Assembly (NCBI GenBank): GCA_035254545.1
Contig: DATFAP010000010.1
Coordinates: forward strand, 5,286-69,285
Source of the DNA: Sediminibacterium sp.
GTDB lineage: Bacteria; Bacteroidota; Bacteroidia; Chitinophagales; Chitinophagaceae
Length of the DNA stretch: 64,000 nt
Reading direction: 5' to 3'
The notes beneath the pieces are model-generated. The model made no database searches and was not told the DNA's origin. It saw only the letters and a program-made list of their open reading frames with translations. The position numbers and the translations under genes were made by a program. This document shows, one piece after another, positions 9,103 through 19,852 of this stretch. Numbering within the stretch: position 1 is the stretch's first letter; every line of letters begins with the position of its first letter.

Positions 9103-9711
9103 ATGAAATCTTGTTTTGCGGTACTAAGTATAATGCTTTTCTGCGCTTGCAAACAGGTATCACCAAAGCTTCCCTTTCTCGGTAAGCCACTGATTTCAGG
9201 TAAGGATACGGCTTATCCTGTAATCGCCGGCTTCTCATTGATTAATCAGGACGGTCAGGTAGTGACCAATCAAACATTTTCAGGGAAAATCTATGTTGCT
9301 GATTTTGTCTTCCTTTCCTGTCCAACTATTTGTCCTAAGATGACAAGAGAAATGTATAAGGCGTTCCTTGCATTTGCTGCTGATGACAGGGTAGGTTTTA
9401 TATCTCATAGTATTGACCCTGAACGTGATACGGTTCCCCGGCTAAAAGCTTTTGCCGAAGCTTTGGGGGTGGCTGCTCCCAAATGGAATTTTGTAACCGG
9501 TAATCAGGATAGCATTATGCGTCTTGCTGAACAATCTTATTTTTCAATAGCATACCCCGATAGTACGGCTCCTGGTGGGTTTACACATAGCGGGGGATTG
9601 TTGTTGATCGACCAGGACAGGCATATTCGCGGTGTTTACGATGGAACCCGGCCGGAAGAAACCCGGCGCCTCATTGAAGATATCCACACACTTTTAAAGC
9701 AGGAATATTAG
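9103..9711 (+). CDS. SCO1/SenC-family thioredoxin-fold copper chaperone
   Basis: Lipoprotein-like N-terminus, a CPTICP (CxxxC) motif and a downstream His (ISHSIDPERD). Confidence 0.85.
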   Translation: MKSCFAVLSIMLFCACKQVSPKLPFLGKPLISGKDTAYPVIAGFSLINQDGQVVTNQTFSGKIYVADFVFLSCPTICPKMTREMYKAFLAFAADDRVGFISHSIDPERDTVPRLKAFAEALGVAAPKWNFVTGNQDSIMRLAEQSYFSIAYPDSTAPGGFTHSGGLLLIDQDRHIRGVYDGTRPEETRRLIEDIHTLLKQEY

Positions 9712-9724
9712 TTTTGTCTTTGTT

Positions 9725-10105
9725 ATGTTGAGAAAGTTTGTGTCCATACTACTGATTGTCACTTTCCTCCTGCAGTCTGCAAGTCAGCTATGGATATGGA
9801 CAGCATTCGAAATAAACAGGGATTTCATTGCAGATAATCTTTGTATTAACCGCTTTGACGCAATTCCGCTTTGCAAAGGCTCCTGTGTTCTGGAAAAAAC
9901 ATTGAACGAAAACCAGGATCGTCAGCAAAAATCTCCGGATCTGAAAGCAAAGGTCATTACACTCTTTTGTCAGAATTTGCCCTTTGAGCTTTCTTCCCCA
10001 GCTTGTATGCAGGATTCTAACGGTGATTACATTGGCGTTGATGCTTCTTTGATCACTTCCCGATACCTCCGTTCCATATTCAGGCCACCTGATGCCATTG
10101 TTTAA
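9725..10105 (+). CDS. hypothetical membrane-anchored Cys-rich protein
   Basis: 126 aa with one N-terminal TM and 6 Cys in the soluble part. It lies 13 nt after the SCO gene. Confidence 0.45.
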   Translation: MLRKFVSILLIVTFLLQSASQLWIWTAFEINRDFIADNLCINRFDAIPLCKGSCVLEKTLNENQDRQQKSPDLKAKVITLFCQNLPFELSSPACMQDSNGDYIGVDASLITSRYLRSIFRPPDAIV

Positions 10106-10137
10106 CATCAATCTTTTTTAGTTAAACAATCAATTTG

Positions 10138-11004
10138 ATGGGTATGAAAACAGCCGAAATAGCTGTATACCCTGTTAGTGTTTTTGGTACAGAGAAATCT
10201 TTCTGGATTGGTAACCTCGAAGGAATATTGGAAAAATTCCCTCAGTTAGAGTGCCCGCATAAACAGACATTTTATATGCTGTTGTATGTACAGGAAGCTT
10301 TGGGTATGGTGAAGCTGGATAAGCAAACCATACTCCTGGACCGGCAGAAAGTAATCTGTATAAAACCATACAGTGTATTCAGTTTGGATATCAATAGGAA
10401 TGCAAATGGCAGTATCATTTGTTTTACAGAAACATTTTTCTCGTTGCGCTACAATAATAATGTCTTGTATCAGTTTCTCTTTCTAAAAAAAGATGCTGAA
10501 AGCTATACCCGTTTGTCCGAAAAACATGCCGGGAAATGGGAGAACCTTCTCTGTTTGATGGAACAGGAGTTCAATGCGCACCATAAAAGCGCTGAGAAGG
10601 TATTGCGCTCTTATCTCAATATTCTTCTATTTGACCTGGACCGGAATTTACATCCCCACAAACGAATAGAACACAAAAACAATAAGACGGATAAAATAAT
10701 ACAGTTTGAACGGCTGGTGGATGACTATTTCATGCAGCATAAAACACCTTCTTTTTATGCCGCCGGATTGCATATTAGCACCAACTATCTGAACAGGCTT
10801 TGCAGGGAGTACAGGGGAGTAACGGGTGGAGAAATTATTCGGAAAAGGGTAATTATTGAGGCGCAGCGGTTGCTGCAGTATACTACACTTTCTGTAGCAG
10901 AAACGGCTTATAAACTGGGTTTTGAAAGCCCTTCCTATTTTATCACTTTTTTCAAGAAGAATACCGGAACCACTCCGGAAGGATTTAGAACAATGGATGG
11001 ATAA
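10138..11004 (+). CDS. AraC-family transcriptional regulator
   Basis: C-terminal double HTH (LHISTNYLNRLCREYRGVTGGEII ... VAETAYKLGFESPSYFITFFKKNTGTTP). Confidence 0.85.
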   Translation: MGMKTAEIAVYPVSVFGTEKSFWIGNLEGILEKFPQLECPHKQTFYMLLYVQEALGMVKLDKQTILLDRQKVICIKPYSVFSLDINRNANGSIICFTETFFSLRYNNNVLYQFLFLKKDAESYTRLSEKHAGKWENLLCLMEQEFNAHHKSAEKVLRSYLNILLFDLDRNLHPHKRIEHKNNKTDKIIQFERLVDDYFMQHKTPSFYAAGLHISTNYLNRLCREYRGVTGGEIIRKRVIIEAQRLLQYTTLSVAETAYKLGFESPSYFITFFKKNTGTTPEGFRTMDG

Positions 11005-11095: not shown

Positions 11096-11157
11096 CTTTG
11101 TATTTTCTATGTATCATCTAATGTGCCGCTGATCTTTGTATCTAAAGTTATTTGGTT

Positions 11158-12657
11158 ATGGATTTTCCAATGTTTCATCTTGATTGGTTGAACGACAGGT
11201 TCCTGATTGCGCTTATTGCCATTCTGCATGTTTGTATCAACCATGGTCTGGCAGTTGGGTTTATACCTTTTATTACAAAACTGGAACAACAGGGTGTTAT
11301 GCATAGTGGCAGCAGCCGGATAACTGATCCTGAATGGGATGCCATGGTGTACAGGATGATGAAGGTCGGTTTCCTGATTACTACCAGTTTAGGAGCGATG
11401 ACCGGAGTGGGGATATGGATATCCGTATCCGTGGTTAGTCCGTCCTCTATCGCCAGCCTGATCAGGGTATTTTACTGGGCATGGTTTACCGAGTGGCTGG
11501 TATTTGTGACTGAAGTGGTGCTGATCCTGATTTATTTTCTTACATGGAAAAACTCCAATAAATCGCTTAAGGCAAAGCTTCGCCATATAAAATTCGGATG
11601 GTTTCTGTCCATTTTTTCATGGATCACAATGGCCATTATCGTAGCAATCCTGGGTTTTATGATGGATCCGGGAAACTGGAATACAGGCCGTAGCCTGGTA
11701 AACGGGTTTGTGAACCCAATCTATTTGCCACAATTGATTTTCCGGACACCCGCTGCTATGCTGGTGGCAGGTGTTTTCGGCTATGTATTATCAATTTTAT
11801 TTACCGGTAAGAATACTGCCATCAGGGCAAGAGCGGTTAAACAATCCTCCCGATGGATTTTGTATTGGACACCTCTAGCTTTGGGCGGGGCGGTTTTTTA
11901 CTATCGGGCAATACCGCAGGCAATGACTGATAATATGAGTACTGCGGTAGGCACTTTGCAGTTTGCAGAATACTATAATATATTGAAGTACGTAATAGCC
12001 GGTGCTATTTCAACTGTTTTTATAGTTGCTGCGCTGGGCGTTCTTAAGCCAAAGAAAGTCCGGCTGGTAATGGTAGTTATTCCCTGCATTACGGCATTTG
12101 GGTTCCTGGCTATTTTTGAACGGGTACGGGAATTCATCCGAAAGCCATATGTGATCGGGGGTTATATGTACAGCAACCTTCTGAGAGTAGAGGATTACCC
12201 GTTGTACAAAAGAGATGGTATCCTGAAATATGCTGTGTATACTTCCACCCCGGAAGTGACGGAGGCCAATAAGATAGAAGCGGGGAGAAACGTATTTATT
12301 CTTACCTGTAGTCGTTGTCATACAACACAAGGAATTAATTCAATTGTATTCGCATTCGAAAGAATGTATGGTGTCGGTAAACCTTTCGATGAAGTATCTA
12401 TAGCTGCTTTTACAAAGGGGATGCATAACGGGCGTACTTTCATGCCTGAGTTTCCAGGCAACAAAAAGGAGTTGGAAGCGCTATCTTCCTATATCAAAAA
12501 CCTGCAGCAAACCGGTGATGTAATTGAAGGTGCGCAGAATGAGGGGGTAGTGGTGAATCCGAACCAAAGCGTAACTGCCGTATTGCCACTGATTGAACAG
12601 CAACAGAATGCGGTAGCTGATTCCCTGAGTAAAATATCACTGTTGTCCAATAAATAA
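11158..12657 (+). CDS. CydA-like (cytochrome bd superfamily) membrane protein fused to a C-terminal mono-haem cytochrome c domain
   Basis: About 8 TM. TM1 His (ALIAILHVCINHGLAVG) and acidic TM3 (WFTEWLVFVTEVVLILIYFLTW) align by eye with E. coli CydA. CSRCH at 12307-12321 and a distal FMPEF are present. ATG at 11158 preferred to TTG at 11152. Confidence 0.65.
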   Translation: MDFPMFHLDWLNDRFLIALIAILHVCINHGLAVGFIPFITKLEQQGVMHSGSSRITDPEWDAMVYRMMKVGFLITTSLGAMTGVGIWISVSVVSPSSIASLIRVFYWAWFTEWLVFVTEVVLILIYFLTWKNSNKSLKAKLRHIKFGWFLSIFSWITMAIIVAILGFMMDPGNWNTGRSLVNGFVNPIYLPQLIFRTPAAMLVAGVFGYVLSILFTGKNTAIRARAVKQSSRWILYWTPLALGGAVFYYRAIPQAMTDNMSTAVGTLQFAEYYNILKYVIAGAISTVFIVAALGVLKPKKVRLVMVVIPCITAFGFLAIFERVREFIRKPYVIGGYMYSNLLRVEDYPLYKRDGILKYAVYTSTPEVTEANKIEAGRNVFILTCSRCHTTQGINSIVFAFERMYGVGKPFDEVSIAAFTKGMHNGRTFMPEFPGNKKELEALSSYIKNLQQTGDVIEGAQNEGVVVNPNQSVTAVLPLIEQQQNAVADSLSKISLLSNK

Positions 12658-12671
12658 AACCACCGAAAATT

Positions 12672-14009
12672 ATGCTTCGCTTATTGCAGGTTAGCACTCC
12701 CGTACCGAGGGATATCCCTTTGGATCTGCCATTACCCGAATGGCTGTTGATCGTTTTACTGGTTCTCTCTTTTTTGTTGCACATTATTTTTGTAAACCTG
12801 ATGCTGGGTAGTACGGTATTAACTTTGTGGTGCCAGATCAAAGGGCTGAAAGATCAGGATTATCACCAGCTTGCTCATGAAATATCAAGGACCATTACTG
12901 TCAATAAAAGCCTGGCCGTTGTTCTGGGTGTGGCTCCTTTGTTGAGTATCTCTACTCTTTATGCCACTTATTTTTATTCAGCGACATCACTTACCGGTGG
13001 CATGTGGATTGCTATTATCCCTTTGGTTACAGTGGCATTCCTGCTTACTTATTTAAATAAGTACACCTGGAAAATGCTGGATAAGAATAAACCTTTGAGT
13101 ATTGCCATTAATGCCGCAGCGACCGCTTTGTTTCTGTTTATTCCCCTGATTTTTCTGGTAAATGTAAATTTGATGCTTTTCCCCGAAAAATGGGGATCTG
13201 TGAAAGGATTTTTCAGCGCGTTGTTATTGCCGAATGTATTGCCCCGATACCTCCATTTCATTGCTGCCTCTATGGCTGTAACCGGGCTATTCATTTTCTG
13301 GTATATGGGTAGAAAAAATTACCCCTTCGAAACTTACTTTGCTCGCCTGACTCGCTATGAGGTCAGGAAAAATGCATATTCTCTTACGTTGGCTGCTTCG
13401 GTTGCCCAGTTCATCATCGGGCCTTTGGTAATGCTGACACTTCCGACCAAAGGATTTGACTGGCGGCTCGTGCTGATGATTCTAAGTGGCGCTGCCATTG
13501 CCTTGCCTGCTATGTGGCAGATCTGGAAAGCCATCTCCGGAACCCCGGAGAATATAGACCGCCATTTTGGGGTGGTGGTGATTGCGTTGACTATCACTGT
13601 GGTTTTTATGGGCAGTGGCAGGCATGTATACAGGGCTAATGCTTTGGCACCACATCAGAAATTGATGGCTGCAAATACTGCGGAGTTCCAGCGCCTATCT
13701 AAGGAAGCCAGGGAAAACCCTGTTGTTGAAGAAGTGCTGAAACCCGACAGTTCTTTAGGTGCTGATACCAGGGGCGCTGTTGTTTTTAAGCAAAACTGTA
13801 GCAGTTGCCACCTGGAAAAAACAAAACTGATTGGGCCGCCGATGACAGAAATGTCGGCTATTTATGCAAATGATAAAAATGGCCTGAAGCAGTGGATAAA
13901 GTCACCGGGGAAGAAAAGGCCTGGCTATCCGCAGATGCCCGCCTTTTCTCAACTCAGTGATGCGGATAGGGAGGAATTAGCTAACTACATCTTGGTAATT
14001 AAAAAATAA
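12672..14009 (+). CDS. second CydA-like membrane protein fused to a C-terminal mono-haem cytochrome c domain
   Basis: TM1 SFLLHIIFVNLMLGS resembles CydA YHFLFVPLTLG. PRYLHFIAASMAVTGLF resembles CydA VKFVHTVASGYVTGAMF (b558 His). CSSCH at 13797-13811 and a distal QMPAF are present. Confidence 0.65.
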   Translation: MLRLLQVSTPVPRDIPLDLPLPEWLLIVLLVLSFLLHIIFVNLMLGSTVLTLWCQIKGLKDQDYHQLAHEISRTITVNKSLAVVLGVAPLLSISTLYATYFYSATSLTGGMWIAIIPLVTVAFLLTYLNKYTWKMLDKNKPLSIAINAAATALFLFIPLIFLVNVNLMLFPEKWGSVKGFFSALLLPNVLPRYLHFIAASMAVTGLFIFWYMGRKNYPFETYFARLTRYEVRKNAYSLTLAASVAQFIIGPLVMLTLPTKGFDWRLVLMILSGAAIALPAMWQIWKAISGTPENIDRHFGVVVIALTITVVFMGSGRHVYRANALAPHQKLMAANTAEFQRLSKEARENPVVEEVLKPDSSLGADTRGAVVFKQNCSSCHLEKTKLIGPPMTEMSAIYANDKNGLKQWIKSPGKKRPGYPQMPAFSQLSDADREELANYILVIKK

Positions 14010-14013
14010 AAGT

Positions 14014-14181
14014 ATGCTTATCATGTATTTTTTTGCCGCAATTATTGTTCTTGTTTTTGTGTTGGCTGTGCAATTGATCAGGATGGATATATATGCCCTT
14101 GGCATCAGAAAAGACAATATTCTTAATCAGGCAACCATCAAAGAGGATACTGATTGGGAGTTCATCAAGGGGTTGTACTGA
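14014..14181 (+). CDS. 55-aa single-TM protein, candidate small subunit (not in the ORF track, below its length cut-off)
   Basis: ATG 4 nt after the upstream stop. Sequence is MLIMYFFAAIIVLVFVLAVQLIRMDIYALGIRKDNILNQATIKEDTDWEFIKGLY. An intrinsic terminator follows. Confidence 0.5.
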   Translation: MLIMYFFAAIIVLVFVLAVQLIRMDIYALGIRKDNILNQATIKEDTDWEFIKGLY

Positions 14182-14224
14182 TTAACAAATAGTTGTCGTA
14201 TGTGATTTTAGGTAATACATGCGT

Positions 14225-14251
14225 AGCCGGTGTTTCTACACTGGCTTTTTT
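14225..14251 (+). terminator. rho-independent terminator (possibly bidirectional)
   Basis: AGCCGGTG-TTTCTA-CACTGGCT forms an 8-bp stem with one G-U pair, followed by TTTTT. It sits between convergent genes, and the T-tract overlaps the DoxX stop codon. Confidence 0.6.
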
Positions 14252-14609
14252 ATTGTATTTTTTGATGGTAAGCATAGGATATGGTAAGGATAGCCAGGAA
14301 TACCAGTGGGGTAATGATGGCCGAAGCCGGATCCCCGCTTGCCGCATGTGCAAGAGTCGCTGACAGAAAAGTAAAGGCAAATCCTGAATAGGTGAGCCCT
14401 TTAACAGTGGCTGGTATTACCGGTATCACCAGCAACAAAGCGCCCGCAAGTTTGGCAATGCCCAATTCTATTCTGAAATAGTCCGGGAATCCCAAATGCG
14501 TGAATCCTGCTTTGATATCCGGATTGTTGAAATACCCGTATGCACTGAACAGCATCATGGCCGATATAATTCCTGTGGTTGCCCAATAGATTATTTTGTC
14601 TTTTTTCAT
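14250..14609 (-). CDS. DoxX-like membrane protein
   Basis: 119 aa with 4 TM. The pattern WATTGIISAMMLFSAYGYF...IELGIAKLAGALLLVIP is typical of the DoxX-like family. Confidence 0.7.
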   Translation of the reverse strand: MKKDKIIYWATTGIISAMMLFSAYGYFNNPDIKAGFTHLGFPDYFRIELGIAKLAGALLLVIPVIPATVKGLTYSGFAFTFLSATLAHAASGDPASAIITPLVFLAILTISYAYHQKIQ

Positions 14610-17762: not shown

Positions 17763-19004
17763 ATGAAAAATTTACTCCGGTTATTCAGATTCTTTAACCT
17801 GAAACCTTCGCTGCTTTTAGTAGTAGCGGGCTTTGTTGCCATTGTAGCGGGTGCCAATATCAACGCTCCGAAACCCAAACCGATTATTACCGGTGCAGAT
17901 CAGACACATCTATACCTGCCTTACTTAAAAGGCAAGCGCGTGGCGCTGCTGGCCAATCCTACTACGATTGTGGGGAATAAGCACTTTGTAGACAGTATGC
18001 TGAATCGTGGAATCAATATCGTGAAAGTGTTTGGCCCCGAACATGGGTTCCGGGGCAATGCCAGCGCCGGGGTTAATGTGAAAGATGAGAAAGATCCTGC
18101 TACAGGTGTTGCCGTAATTTCTCTCTATGGCCCCAAACGCAAGCCGTCTAAGGAAGACCTGGCCGATGTGGATGTAATGATCTTCGATATCCAGGATGTA
18201 GGCTGTCGTTTTTACACATACATCAACGTACTGGGCCATATCATGGAAGCCTGTGCGGAAAATAACAAGGAACTCCTGATCCTCGATCGGCCCAATCCCA
18301 ATGGTTACCTGGTGGATGGCCCTGTACTGGATATGAAATTCAAATCGGGTATTGGCATTTATCCCATTCCTGTTGCTCATGGCATGACCATTGCCGAATT
18401 TGCGCAGATGCTGAACGGAGAAGGATGGTTGCCCAATAAACTACAGTGCAAACTGAAGATCATTAAAGTGGCCAATTATACGCACGATATGGAATATACG
18501 TTGCCGGTAAAGCCTTCTCCTAATCTCAATACCCAACAAAGCATTATGCTTTATCCTACTACCTGCTGGTTCGAAGGAACGGTACTGAACCACGGAAGAG
18601 GAACACAGTTTCCCTTTACGGTTTTTGGCAGCCCGCTTTTTAAAGGGAAATATGATTTTTCTTATACTCCTGTCAGTATTCCCGGTATGAGTGAAACACC
18701 GCTGCACATGAATACCGAATGTTACGGGCTGGATCTGCGTAATGTTGATATTGCCGAACTGCGTAAAACCAAACGAATCCATATTCAGTGGATGATCGAT
18801 CTTTATAATAATTTCCCTGATAAGGCTCATTTCTTCGACAGAAGCCAGAGCAAGGAAATTGGAGACATCAATAAACTGGCCGGTACCGATTTGTTCAGGC
18901 AGCAGGTGGAAGCCGGCAAGTCTGTTCAGGAAATTTATGCTTCCTGGGAACCGGGTTTATCGGCATATAAAGCGATGCGGAAGAAGTACCTGCTTTATCA
19001 GTAG
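17763..19004 (+). CDS. namZ: DUF1343 family exo-beta-N-acetylmuramidase
   Basis: 413 aa. LKGKRVALLANPTTIVG...HFVD and FGPEHGFRG are DUF1343/NamZ hallmarks. Confidence 0.8.
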   Translation: MKNLLRLFRFFNLKPSLLLVVAGFVAIVAGANINAPKPKPIITGADQTHLYLPYLKGKRVALLANPTTIVGNKHFVDSMLNRGINIVKVFGPEHGFRGNASAGVNVKDEKDPATGVAVISLYGPKRKPSKEDLADVDVMIFDIQDVGCRFYTYINVLGHIMEACAENNKELLILDRPNPNGYLVDGPVLDMKFKSGIGIYPIPVAHGMTIAEFAQMLNGEGWLPNKLQCKLKIIKVANYTHDMEYTLPVKPSPNLNTQQSIMLYPTTCWFEGTVLNHGRGTQFPFTVFGSPLFKGKYDFSYTPVSIPGMSETPLHMNTECYGLDLRNVDIAELRKTKRIHIQWMIDLYNNFPDKAHFFDRSQSKEIGDINKLAGTDLFRQQVEAGKSVQEIYASWEPGLSAYKAMRKKYLLYQ

Positions 19005-19852
19005 GTATTGGTCATATCTTCATCTACACAAATAATAAAGTCTGCTCTGCCCTTGTTTTCGGTGAGCAGGCTTTTTATGTTTTTCTGGCTTACTGTGGAA
19101 ATTGTACCGTATTTCAGGTCCGGCTTTTCCCGTTTCAGGTACCAGTTGATGCCATCGTAAAAATCGGAGTGGTAGGAGCCGTTATAATGCAGGAACAATG
19201 AGCCTGCCTGCAGGTTACGCAAAATAAAGTACGCCATGGTCGCATCCTTACTCGCCTGCGCTTTGGGCATATTTTCGCTGCCATGTCCCGCCATCATCTC
19301 CATCATCTTTACATAACCCGGCAGATTTTTATCATAAGCCATGGGTAAGGGAGCTATCCATTTTTTTTCTGCTTCTGTTAAACTGTCGAGCCGGGTGAAT
19401 CCTCCTTTGCTAACCATTGCTGCATACTTCCTAGGAATGTTGGTGGCTATAAATGGTAGTTGGCTGGATTTGGCATAGTTCAGCAAAGGCGCATAGTCTG
19501 TTGTGTAATTCTTCCAAAGCCTTGCGCTGGAATCCAACCCACGGGAACTGAGTTTTCCCGAGAGGTATTGATTCAGCGCATCCTGGTTGTCGGCTTCAAA
19601 CATTTCTGCTCCAAGGATTATTTGTCTGTTTTGATGAAGGTCTTTGGTGACCTCCAGTTGCAGCCAGTGCGCAATGGCGTTGTTGTGATACTCTCCAAAT
19701 AGCACAATATCCTTCTCCTTCAGTATCCGGATCATTTTTTGATAAGTAACCTGGCGACCTTTGGAATTGTAAATGATATACGGTGTTTTACCCTGGGCAA
19801 ATATACCCGATGCACTTATAAGAAGTGTTAGCAGAAGGACTTGTTTTTTCAT
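18998..19852 (-). CDS. ChaN-family (haem-binding/Tiki-like) lipoprotein
   Basis: Signal peptide present. VLFGEYHNNAIAHWLQLEV is typical of the ChaN/Cofac_haem_bdg family. Confidence 0.7.
   Translation of the reverse strand: MKKQVLLLTLLISASGIFAQGKTPYIIYNSKGRQVTYQKMIRILKEKDIVLFGEYHNNAIAHWLQLEVTKDLHQNRQIILGAEMFEADNQDALNQYLSGKLSSRGLDSSARLWKNYTTDYAPLLNYAKSSQLPFIATNIPRKYAAMVSKGGFTRLDSLTEAEKKWIAPLPMAYDKNLPGYVKMMEMMAGHGSENMPKAQASKDATMAYFILRNLQAGSLFLHYNGSYHSDFYDGINWYLKREKPDLKYGTISTVSQKNIKSLLTENKGRADFIICVDEDMTNTY

Follow-up and report, generated by a model that had tools for sequence, protein, structure and literature searches.

What kind of enzyme is encoded where two polytopic membrane proteins, each ending in its own cytochrome c domain, lie side by side in a genome? 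The question is raised by genes A and B of a Sediminibacterium sp. contig (DATFAP010000010.1, assembly GCA_035254545.1), found in the 64,000-nucleotide (nt) stretch analyzed here and called the window below. Gene A (11158 to 12657, + strand, ATG to stop codon) codes for a 499-residue protein with eight transmembrane (TM) helices (residues 13 to 327), a mono-haem cytochrome c domain (about residues 344 to 452) and a variable C-terminal helix. Gene B (12672 to 14009, + strand) codes for a 445-residue paralogue with eight TM helices (residues 23 to 348) and a mono-haem domain of the cytochrome c552/c555 type. A short open reading frame (ORF), gene C, follows. We assign A and B with high confidence to the OR-C1a/OR-C1b pair of the cytochrome bd superfamily defined by Murali et al. 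2021 (10.1101/2021.01.16.426971). The reading that we consider reasonably probable is that A and B, probably with the product of gene C, make up an OR-C1-type complex working as a copper-free cytochrome c:O2 reductase.

Direct scans of A, B and C against Pfam and NCBIfam return cytochrome c domains only (PF13442, with 24.5 bits on A, and PF00034). The CydA family PF01654 gives no match to A or B even at E≤1 (gathering threshold 26.2 bits). An initial annotation, made from the sequence alone, had aligned both proteins with the N-terminal core of E. coli CydA and had listed the lack of a significant PF01654 match as speaking against its proposal. That expectation is too strict, as the miss is due to the short reach of Pfam scans run on one sequence: profiles, relatives that do match Pfam and AlphaFold folds all uphold the alignment. 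A profile of 76 relatives of A, down to about 25% identity and used for all a-type counts given below, matches the Geobacillus CydA chain 5doq_A with E=2.5e-15 over TM1-TM5, plus a motif in TM8 described further on, and matches mycobacterial CydA chains as well. Profiles of the single sequence and of close homologues give a marginal CydA match only among PDB sequences (E ~0.004). PF01654 is matched by 44 of the 76 relatives at E≤0.01, with a best E of 2.4e-19. The AlphaFold2 model of A (predicted local distance difference test score, pLDDT, 94; predicted template modelling score, pTM, 0.88) shows eight TM helices and, after them, a cytochrome c fold. Foldseek of this model against the PDB ranks the CydA chains of every solved bd oxidase in the first nine places, with E from 4e-7 to 3e-5, and CydB chains come next.

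Three lines of evidence link B to CydA: the a-type family profile, the b-type relatives above the Pfam threshold and the fold. The B family aligns with the a-type family over its whole length in hhalign (98.8% probability, E 5.6e-17). The b-type proteins of two related loci, L083 (34.6 bits; 38% identical to B) and L086 (33.5 bits), pass the PF01654 threshold. The AlphaFold2 model of B (pLDDT 85) has eight TM helices and its leading Foldseek matches in the PDB are bd-oxidase subunits, CydA and CydB chains, the best being CydA 6rx4_A with E 4e-4; small c-type cytochromes, which match the c domain, are interspersed from rank 7. The B-family profile run against PDB sequences finds no CydA or CydB match, and hhalign of the B family with the single E. 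coli CydA sequence is not significant. A and B belong to the CydA superfamily, a membership that holds at the superfamily level only.

Public annotations of the relatives read 'cytochrome c', 'c-type cytochrome' or 'cbb3-type subunit III'. Taken at face value, A and B would be ordinary c-type cytochromes, or subunits like CcoP of cbb3 oxidases, with a long membrane anchor, and PF13442 and PF00034 as the only direct Pfam matches agree with such names. However, the N-terminal parts of 320 to 350 residues are eight-TM CydA folds and not anchors, the CcoP matches span the C-terminal 80 to 100 residues only, and no ccoN, ccoO or other haem-copper oxidase gene is found among the annotated neighbours (window positions ~1.8 to 19.9 kb). 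Identity with CcoP was rejected on the scores of TIGR00782 (11 to 28 bits against a cut-off of 180) and because each protein has a single CxxCH and is not di-haem. This explanation, already refuted by the fold and profile results, is scarcely credible, and the family is mis-annotated almost everywhere.

Gene pairing was followed in about 80 related Bacteroidota loci (80 or 81), plus six distant loci. In 79 of 80 Bacteroidota loci A is followed by B, and at the remaining one the contig ends; the a/b pair is also present in all six distant loci, with the b gene sometimes lacking the c domain. Each protein has more than 1400 homologue clusters, which together with the constant order of the two genes shows that A and B are not chance ORFs. 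The membrane domain of A alone collects 541 cluster representatives at 50% identity in a library of 1.84 billion proteins. Full-length relatives of A that were examined carry 0, 1, 2, 3, 4, 7 or 8 CxxCH motifs, most commonly 1, 2 or 8. The genes are co-directional and separated by 14 nt, as first annotated and now borne out by the ORF coordinates. Since orthologues of A begin with MDFPMF, its start is the ATG at 11158 and not the TTG at 11152.

Residues of the active site and of the proton channel are conserved in A. Alignment to E. coli CydA by hhalign places His24 of A (11227-11229, +) at H19, the axial ligand of the active-site haem; it is kept in 75/76 a-type proteins. Glu112 and Glu119 (11491-11514, +) correspond to the proton-channel pair E99/E107 (75/76 and 74/76, respectively), with a spacing one residue shorter than in E. 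coli, as found in qOR3 enzymes. The same alignment equates H143 with H126 (63/76). At the periplasmic end of TM8, the segment E325-F-I-R328-K-P330-Y (12130-12150, +) has the spacing of the E. coli b595 ligand motif E445-Y-G-R448-Q-P-W, R448-P450-W451 being matched; E325 and R328 are each kept in 75/76 relatives and P330 in all 76. This suggests that a-type proteins retain the E445-x-x-R-x-P motif, although a match over such a short stretch is not significant on its own. Supplementary Table 6 of Murali et al. 2021 has a '-' for E445 in OR-C1a, and retention of the motif does not appear elsewhere in the parts of that preprint used here.

The donor side of A is different. The position of H186, ligand of haem b558, is occupied by Phe195, followed by Arg196 (both codons at 11740-11745, +), a substitution that removes the ligand; TM7 shows no conserved Met as counterpart of the second b558 ligand, M393, and the loop between TM6 and TM7 has about 15 residues in the AlphaFold2 model, with no long Q-loop insert. 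Arg196 (11743-11745), present in 76/76 a-type proteins, lies beside the lost His position at the periplasmic start of TM5 and might bind a haem propionate. The superfamily and the fold would fit a canonical quinol-oxidising CydAB that has merely diverged. Against this stand the Phe at H186, the missing Q-loop, the haem c domains, scores below the PF01654 threshold and a PF02322 scan that found no cydB gene at the locus, and we give next to no credit to this possibility. The initial annotation had reported both the lack of a long Q-loop insert and the absence of a cydB-like gene.

In B, His37 of TM1 (12780-12782, +) corresponds to CydA H19 and to H24 of A in the profile alignment; it is invariant in the 45 b-type sequences used for the counts and kept in distant b genes. 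The motif R192-Y-L-H195 (13245-13256, +) brings H195 to the position of H186, and this His is also invariant among b-type proteins. The string 'PRYLH' of B is kept in the distant loci L082 and L083, and L085 has IPRYLH. M111 and L118 replace both Glu of the E99/E107 pair in the profile alignment. Most of this had been seen by eye in the initial annotation: the TM1 His in both proteins, the acidic TM3 of A and, in B, the b558 His without the acidic pair agree with the alignments, and conservation among orthologues, on which its proposal was made to depend, is found for H24, H37 and H195. Its Arg at the b558 His position of A needs correction, as the loss of the ligand stands while the aligned residue is F195 and the Arg comes next. 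Both His of B persist in b-type genes that are only 26-38% identical, which gives some support to the idea that the two subunits are complementary.

Each protein has one haem c attachment motif, followed by a distal Met-Pro, exactly at the coordinates first reported. In A this is CSRCH (C384-H388; 12307-12321, +; 73-74/76 a-type), with Met429-Pro430 as the distal pair (Met429 at 12442-12444; kept in 72/76). In B, motif position in the ORF and Pfam locate CSSCH (C376-H380; 13797-13811, +), with Met422-Pro423 (Met422 at 13935-13937; invariant in the 45 sequences). Haem c attachment takes place in the periplasm. With helix boundaries taken from the AlphaFold2 models, Lys and Arg make up 19 of 83 loop residues inside against 8 of 101 outside in A, and 16 of 94 against 9 of 86 in B. 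This enrichment in the predicted cytoplasmic loops gives an N-out/C-out topology for A and B and places both c domains in the periplasm, as opposed to the cytoplasmic location that the initial annotation had regarded as contrary to its proposal. The arrangement is that of CydA without the ninth helix.

Murali, Gennis & Hemp 2021 (bioRxiv 10.1101/2021.01.16.426971) split the bd superfamily into qOR, OR-C and OR-N. Their OR-C1a proteins are CydA-like, with eight TM helices, H19, E99 and E107 kept, no quinol site and a C-terminal periplasmic haem c. OR-C1b is an adjacent eight-TM paralogue, the 'b' subfamilies lacking the Glu pair, and cytochrome c is proposed in the preprint as the OR-C donor. 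A has the H19, E99 and E107 equivalents, no quinol features and eight TM helices followed by a periplasmic CxxCH; B is adjacent to A, has eight TM helices and lacks the E99/E107 equivalents. Supplementary Table 7 of the preprint lists OR-C1a/b entries with one haem c each for Hydrotalea sandarakina DSM 23241 (scaffold00003.3, the a and b entries having adjacent gene ids), H. flava, several Chitinophaga (C. varians, Chitinophaga sp. Mgbs1), Flavobacterium sp. ACN6, Myroides, Psychroflexus, Runella and Sphingobacterium. Our genome scan recovered these same records at L014 (H. sandarakina), L015 (H. flava), L021 (Chitinophaga sp. Mgbs1), L036 (C. varians), L074 (Flavobacterium sp. ACN6), L018 and L072, all 65-68% identical to A (66-68% for the first five) and with B adjacent. 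The closest relative of the window is a Sediminibacterium metagenome-assembled genome (91%). The suspicion raised in the initial annotation that the proteins belong to the 'OR-C' clades is therefore well founded, and so is the view of a CydA/CydA'-type pair equipped with its own c-haems rather than for quinol, given the missing quinol features and the c domains fused to both proteins.

Murali et al. counted 532 GTDB genomes with the family, and two exact motifs alone recovered 399 species genomes in our scan. The enzyme type and close orthologues of A and B are thus already catalogued, nothing at this locus differs in kind, and the type is biochemically uncharacterised. What may go beyond the preprint, as far as the parts used here extend, is the third gene of 55 codons, the copper-linked synteny and the adjacency to alternative complex III (ACIII) genes in one distant locus.

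We privilege the hypothesis that A, B and probably the 55-residue product of gene C form one membrane complex of the OR-C1 branch. A would be the catalytic subunit, whose first four helices and TM8 would hold the di-haem O2-reducing site, with H24, E325 and R328 standing for H19, E445 and R448, and whose E112, E119 and H143, in place of E99, E107 and H126, would keep a proton path facing the cytoplasm. The quinol-oxidising part of A would be lost together with the b558 His, the Met ligand and the Q-loop, so that the entry for electrons would be periplasmic, by way of the c-haem after TM8 of A. The c-haem of B is probably a second point of electron entry, the fused c domains replacing b558 and quinol. 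B would stand in for CydB as pseudo-symmetric partner, with no proton path, and its conserved H37 and H195 suggest that at least one b-type haem is still bound. The net reaction would be 4 cytochrome c (reduced) + O2 + 4 H+ (inside) -> 2 H2O, with no need for copper. Electrons arriving from outside and protons taken from inside would make it electrogenic. We lean slightly towards this O2-reducing mechanism.

A respiratory role is supported by the distant locus L083 (6001-13308 of a metagenomic contig), where the a gene (435 residues) and the b gene (425 residues) are directly followed by ACIII genes coding for an ActA-like multihaem protein with five CxxCH, ActB, NrfD/ActC and ActD. ACIII is a quinol:cytochrome c reductase. 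The His kept by B at the position of the quinol-side haem b558, and relatives with up to 8 c-haems resembling a conduit, would also suit an electron-transfer module devoid of O2 chemistry, acting as quinol:cytochrome c oxidoreductase or as a transmembrane conduit through the His-ligated haems of B and the c domains. There is, however, no Q-loop and no conserved quinol-site residue, the TM6-TM7 loop of A is short, and OR-C is defined in the Murali et al. preprint by loss of the quinol site. Such a module would also leave the near-invariant Glu pair, H126 and the ExxRxP motif without a reason. We hold it to be improbable.

Several observations weigh against an O2 reductase fed by cytochrome c. 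To the missing direct PF01654 match is added that haem binding at the b and d sites is not readable from sequence. PDB matches of the A and B models (up to April 2026) include no OR-C entry, and a search of the literature on OR-C enzymes, including locus tags of listed members, found no biochemical, structural or functional study apart from proteomics of SMUL_0150; a 2026 cryo-EM paper cites OR-C merely as a phylogenetic class. In that proteomic work SMUL_0150, an a-type protein of Sulfurospirillum, is about 40-fold up in cells adapted to (pyruvate) fermentation, together with a NosL protein. Strict anaerobes, among them Desulfovibrionia, also have members of the family, which bear as many as 8 c-haems. 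This occurrence and the rise of SMUL_0150 during fermentation indicate that O2 may not be the only or the main substrate.

The same complex could instead serve detoxification or another reduction at the di-haem site (H2O2, NO, peroxynitrite, scavenging of O2 at low level), paid for by periplasmic cytochrome c. Canonical bd oxidases have reported peroxidase- or catalase-like activities and roles in NO tolerance. The frequency of the family in anaerobes, with multihaem extensions, and the induction of SMUL_0150 go in the same direction, as do two genes in the same cluster of related loci, one for a secreted Fe/Mn superoxide dismutase (SOD) that has a C-terminal extension (17/81) and one for a di-haem peroxidase resembling MbnH (11/81). 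These neighbours are nevertheless found in a minority of loci only, the ACIII link in L083 points to a respiratory chain, and, like bd enzymes that reduce O2, the complex conserves the whole proton pathway and the set of b595/d ligands. We judge detoxification unlikely as the role of the complex.

Gene C (14014-14181, +) starts 4 nt after gene B, on the same strand as A and B, and codes for a single-pass membrane protein of 55 residues ending in W-E-F-I-K-G-L-Y. In 64 of 73 loci, the ORF right after B likewise codes for a protein with a single TM helix, and about 48 of the 64 products end in [YW][EQ]FIKGL[YF]. Gene C has no Pfam or NCBIfam family match and no similarity to CydX. Its product is probably a small third subunit, specific to Bacteroidota. 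A terminator-like hairpin followed by a T run (14225-14255, +) lies 3' of gene C, and the A-B-C transcription unit probably ends there. A sigma-70 promoter scan gave nothing above shuffled expectation, the sigma-70 model being ill-suited to Bacteroidota promoters, and Rfam found no family at gathering score in the whole 64-kb window, with no tRNA, rRNA or riboswitch match. Minus-strand ORFs overlapping A and B (e.g. 12494-12841) were rejected, as their apparent homologues, in 4 loci, do no more than reflect how A and B are conserved. A DoxX_2 gene (14250-14609, minus strand) is no conserved neighbour of the pair and was for this reason not counted among the components of the system. A ChaN/Tiki-type haem-binding uptake protein (PF04187, 200 bits) is encoded 5 kb downstream (18998-19852, minus strand) and is not conserved beside the pair either.

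Three genes upstream of the pair, on the same strand, are conserved with it. The nearest (10135-11004, +) codes for an AraC-family regulator (Pfam HTH_18, 76 bits), found upstream of A in 68-69 of the ~80 loci. It is preceded by orf126 (9725-10105, +), whose 126-residue product is anchored in the membrane by its N-terminus, has no Pfam family and is present in 54-57 of the ~80 loci. In its 71 homologues C40, C50-x-G-x-C54 and a terminal PP are invariant, and the gene always lies directly after that of a SCO1/SenC-family lipoprotein with the CxxxC motif CPTIC (9103-9711, +; PF02630, 94.5 bits; 46/80 loci). The Cys-rich orf126 product may handle metal or thiols. Related loci have additional genes for a YHS protein (37/81), a TonB-dependent receptor (13) and MbnP (13), a copper-binding protein that is matured by MbnH (PMC11951088). 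Gene content thus marks the neighbourhood of the pair as copper-related; a literature search found no functional study of MbnP, SCO1 or YHS proteins in Bacteroidetes.

Distant loci show other settings. In L082 (1-3942), a UbiA-family gene resembling haem O synthase and a CtaG/Cox11 gene lie directly upstream of the a/b pair, whose b protein lacks the haem c domain. CtaG/Cox11 is a copper chaperone of haem-copper oxidases. In L085 (570-7882 of a Desulfovibrio-like contig), a b gene (364 residues, no haem c) precedes an a gene (847 residues, 8 CxxCH, MtrC/MtrF-like domain), and next to the b-a pair, in divergent orientation, lies a canonical cydAB operon together with an Rrf2 regulator.

Gene context alone leads to a more specific idea, which we consider possible yet doubtful: in Bacteroidota the OR-C1a/b/55-residue operon would belong to a low-copper regulon under the control of the adjacent AraC protein and would supply it with a cytochrome c oxidase that needs no copper. 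When copper is low and haem-copper oxidases are left unassembled, electrons from ACIII and periplasmic c-haems would go to the bd-type enzyme. The same cluster would provide for copper acquisition through SCO1 and orf126 and, in related genomes, through YHS, MbnP/MbnH and the TonB receptor, while the secreted Fe/Mn SOD of related clusters would replace a periplasmic Cu,Zn enzyme. Such a regulon would be the bacterial equivalent of the low-copper switch of Candida, which brings in a Mn-SOD plus the alternative oxidase (PMC5198983). When copper is restricted, Bordetella and M. tuberculosis depend on their canonical bd oxidase (PMC12914433, PMC12140626), a parallel though at the quinol level, whereas the role proposed for OR-C1 is at the cytochrome c level.

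Cytochrome bd enzymes are considered to be quinol oxidases. If the proposed function is true, a bd branch fed by cytochrome c would be a third, copper-free end to the cytochrome c chain beside the aa3- and cbb3-type oxidases. The Bacteroidota version would be a good entry for biochemistry and cryo-EM, as it has one c-haem per large subunit, a conserved small third gene and culturable hosts (Flavobacterium, Chitinophaga, Sphingobacterium), and the conserved copper-related neighbourhood gives a concrete condition in which to seek expression and a phenotype. For a class that is still unstudied, the third gene, the synteny linked to copper and the apparently retained E445 motif are experimental handles.

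Among known systems, A and B are alike to the OR-C1a/b proteins throughout, with an eight-TM CydA-like subunit, an adjacent Glu-less paralogue, no quinol site and one haem c each. Canonical bd oxidases, CydAB(X) of qOR1-3 (PDB 6RKO, 6RX4, 7OSE, 5DOQ, 7NKZ), share the fold of both large subunits, the active-site and proton-channel residues of A, the pseudo-symmetric two-subunit design and the absence of copper, and a small single-TM accessory protein is likewise encoded right after the large subunits. In contrast to CydAB(X), the donor side is replaced, with no b558 ligand pair or Q-loop in A and c-haem domains on both subunits; the partner is a CydA paralogue and not a PF02322 CydB, the helices number eight instead of nine, and gene C is unlike CydX. 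Archaeal CydAA' of Caldivirga maquilingensis (qOR4a/qOR4b), as described in the same preprint, resembles the pair in that its second subunit is a duplicated CydA that has lost the Glu pair and kept the TM1 His, both subunits having eight TM helices. It lacks haem c, however, and oxidises quinol, with H186, M393 and the quinol site retained in its subunit A, and the H186 position is Ala in qOR4b whereas B has His.

The caa3 and cbb3 oxidases coupled to ACIII (structure 6BTM, Flavobacterium johnsoniae) resemble the proposed complex in their place in the chain. They too are terminal acceptors for periplasmic c-haems and have a fused cytochrome c domain, in caa3 subunit II and in CcoP, and the a/b genes lie directly before ACIII genes in one distant locus. 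Their catalytic fold and cofactors are unrelated, as A and B have neither CuB nor CuA, and the likeness is confined to the c domains.

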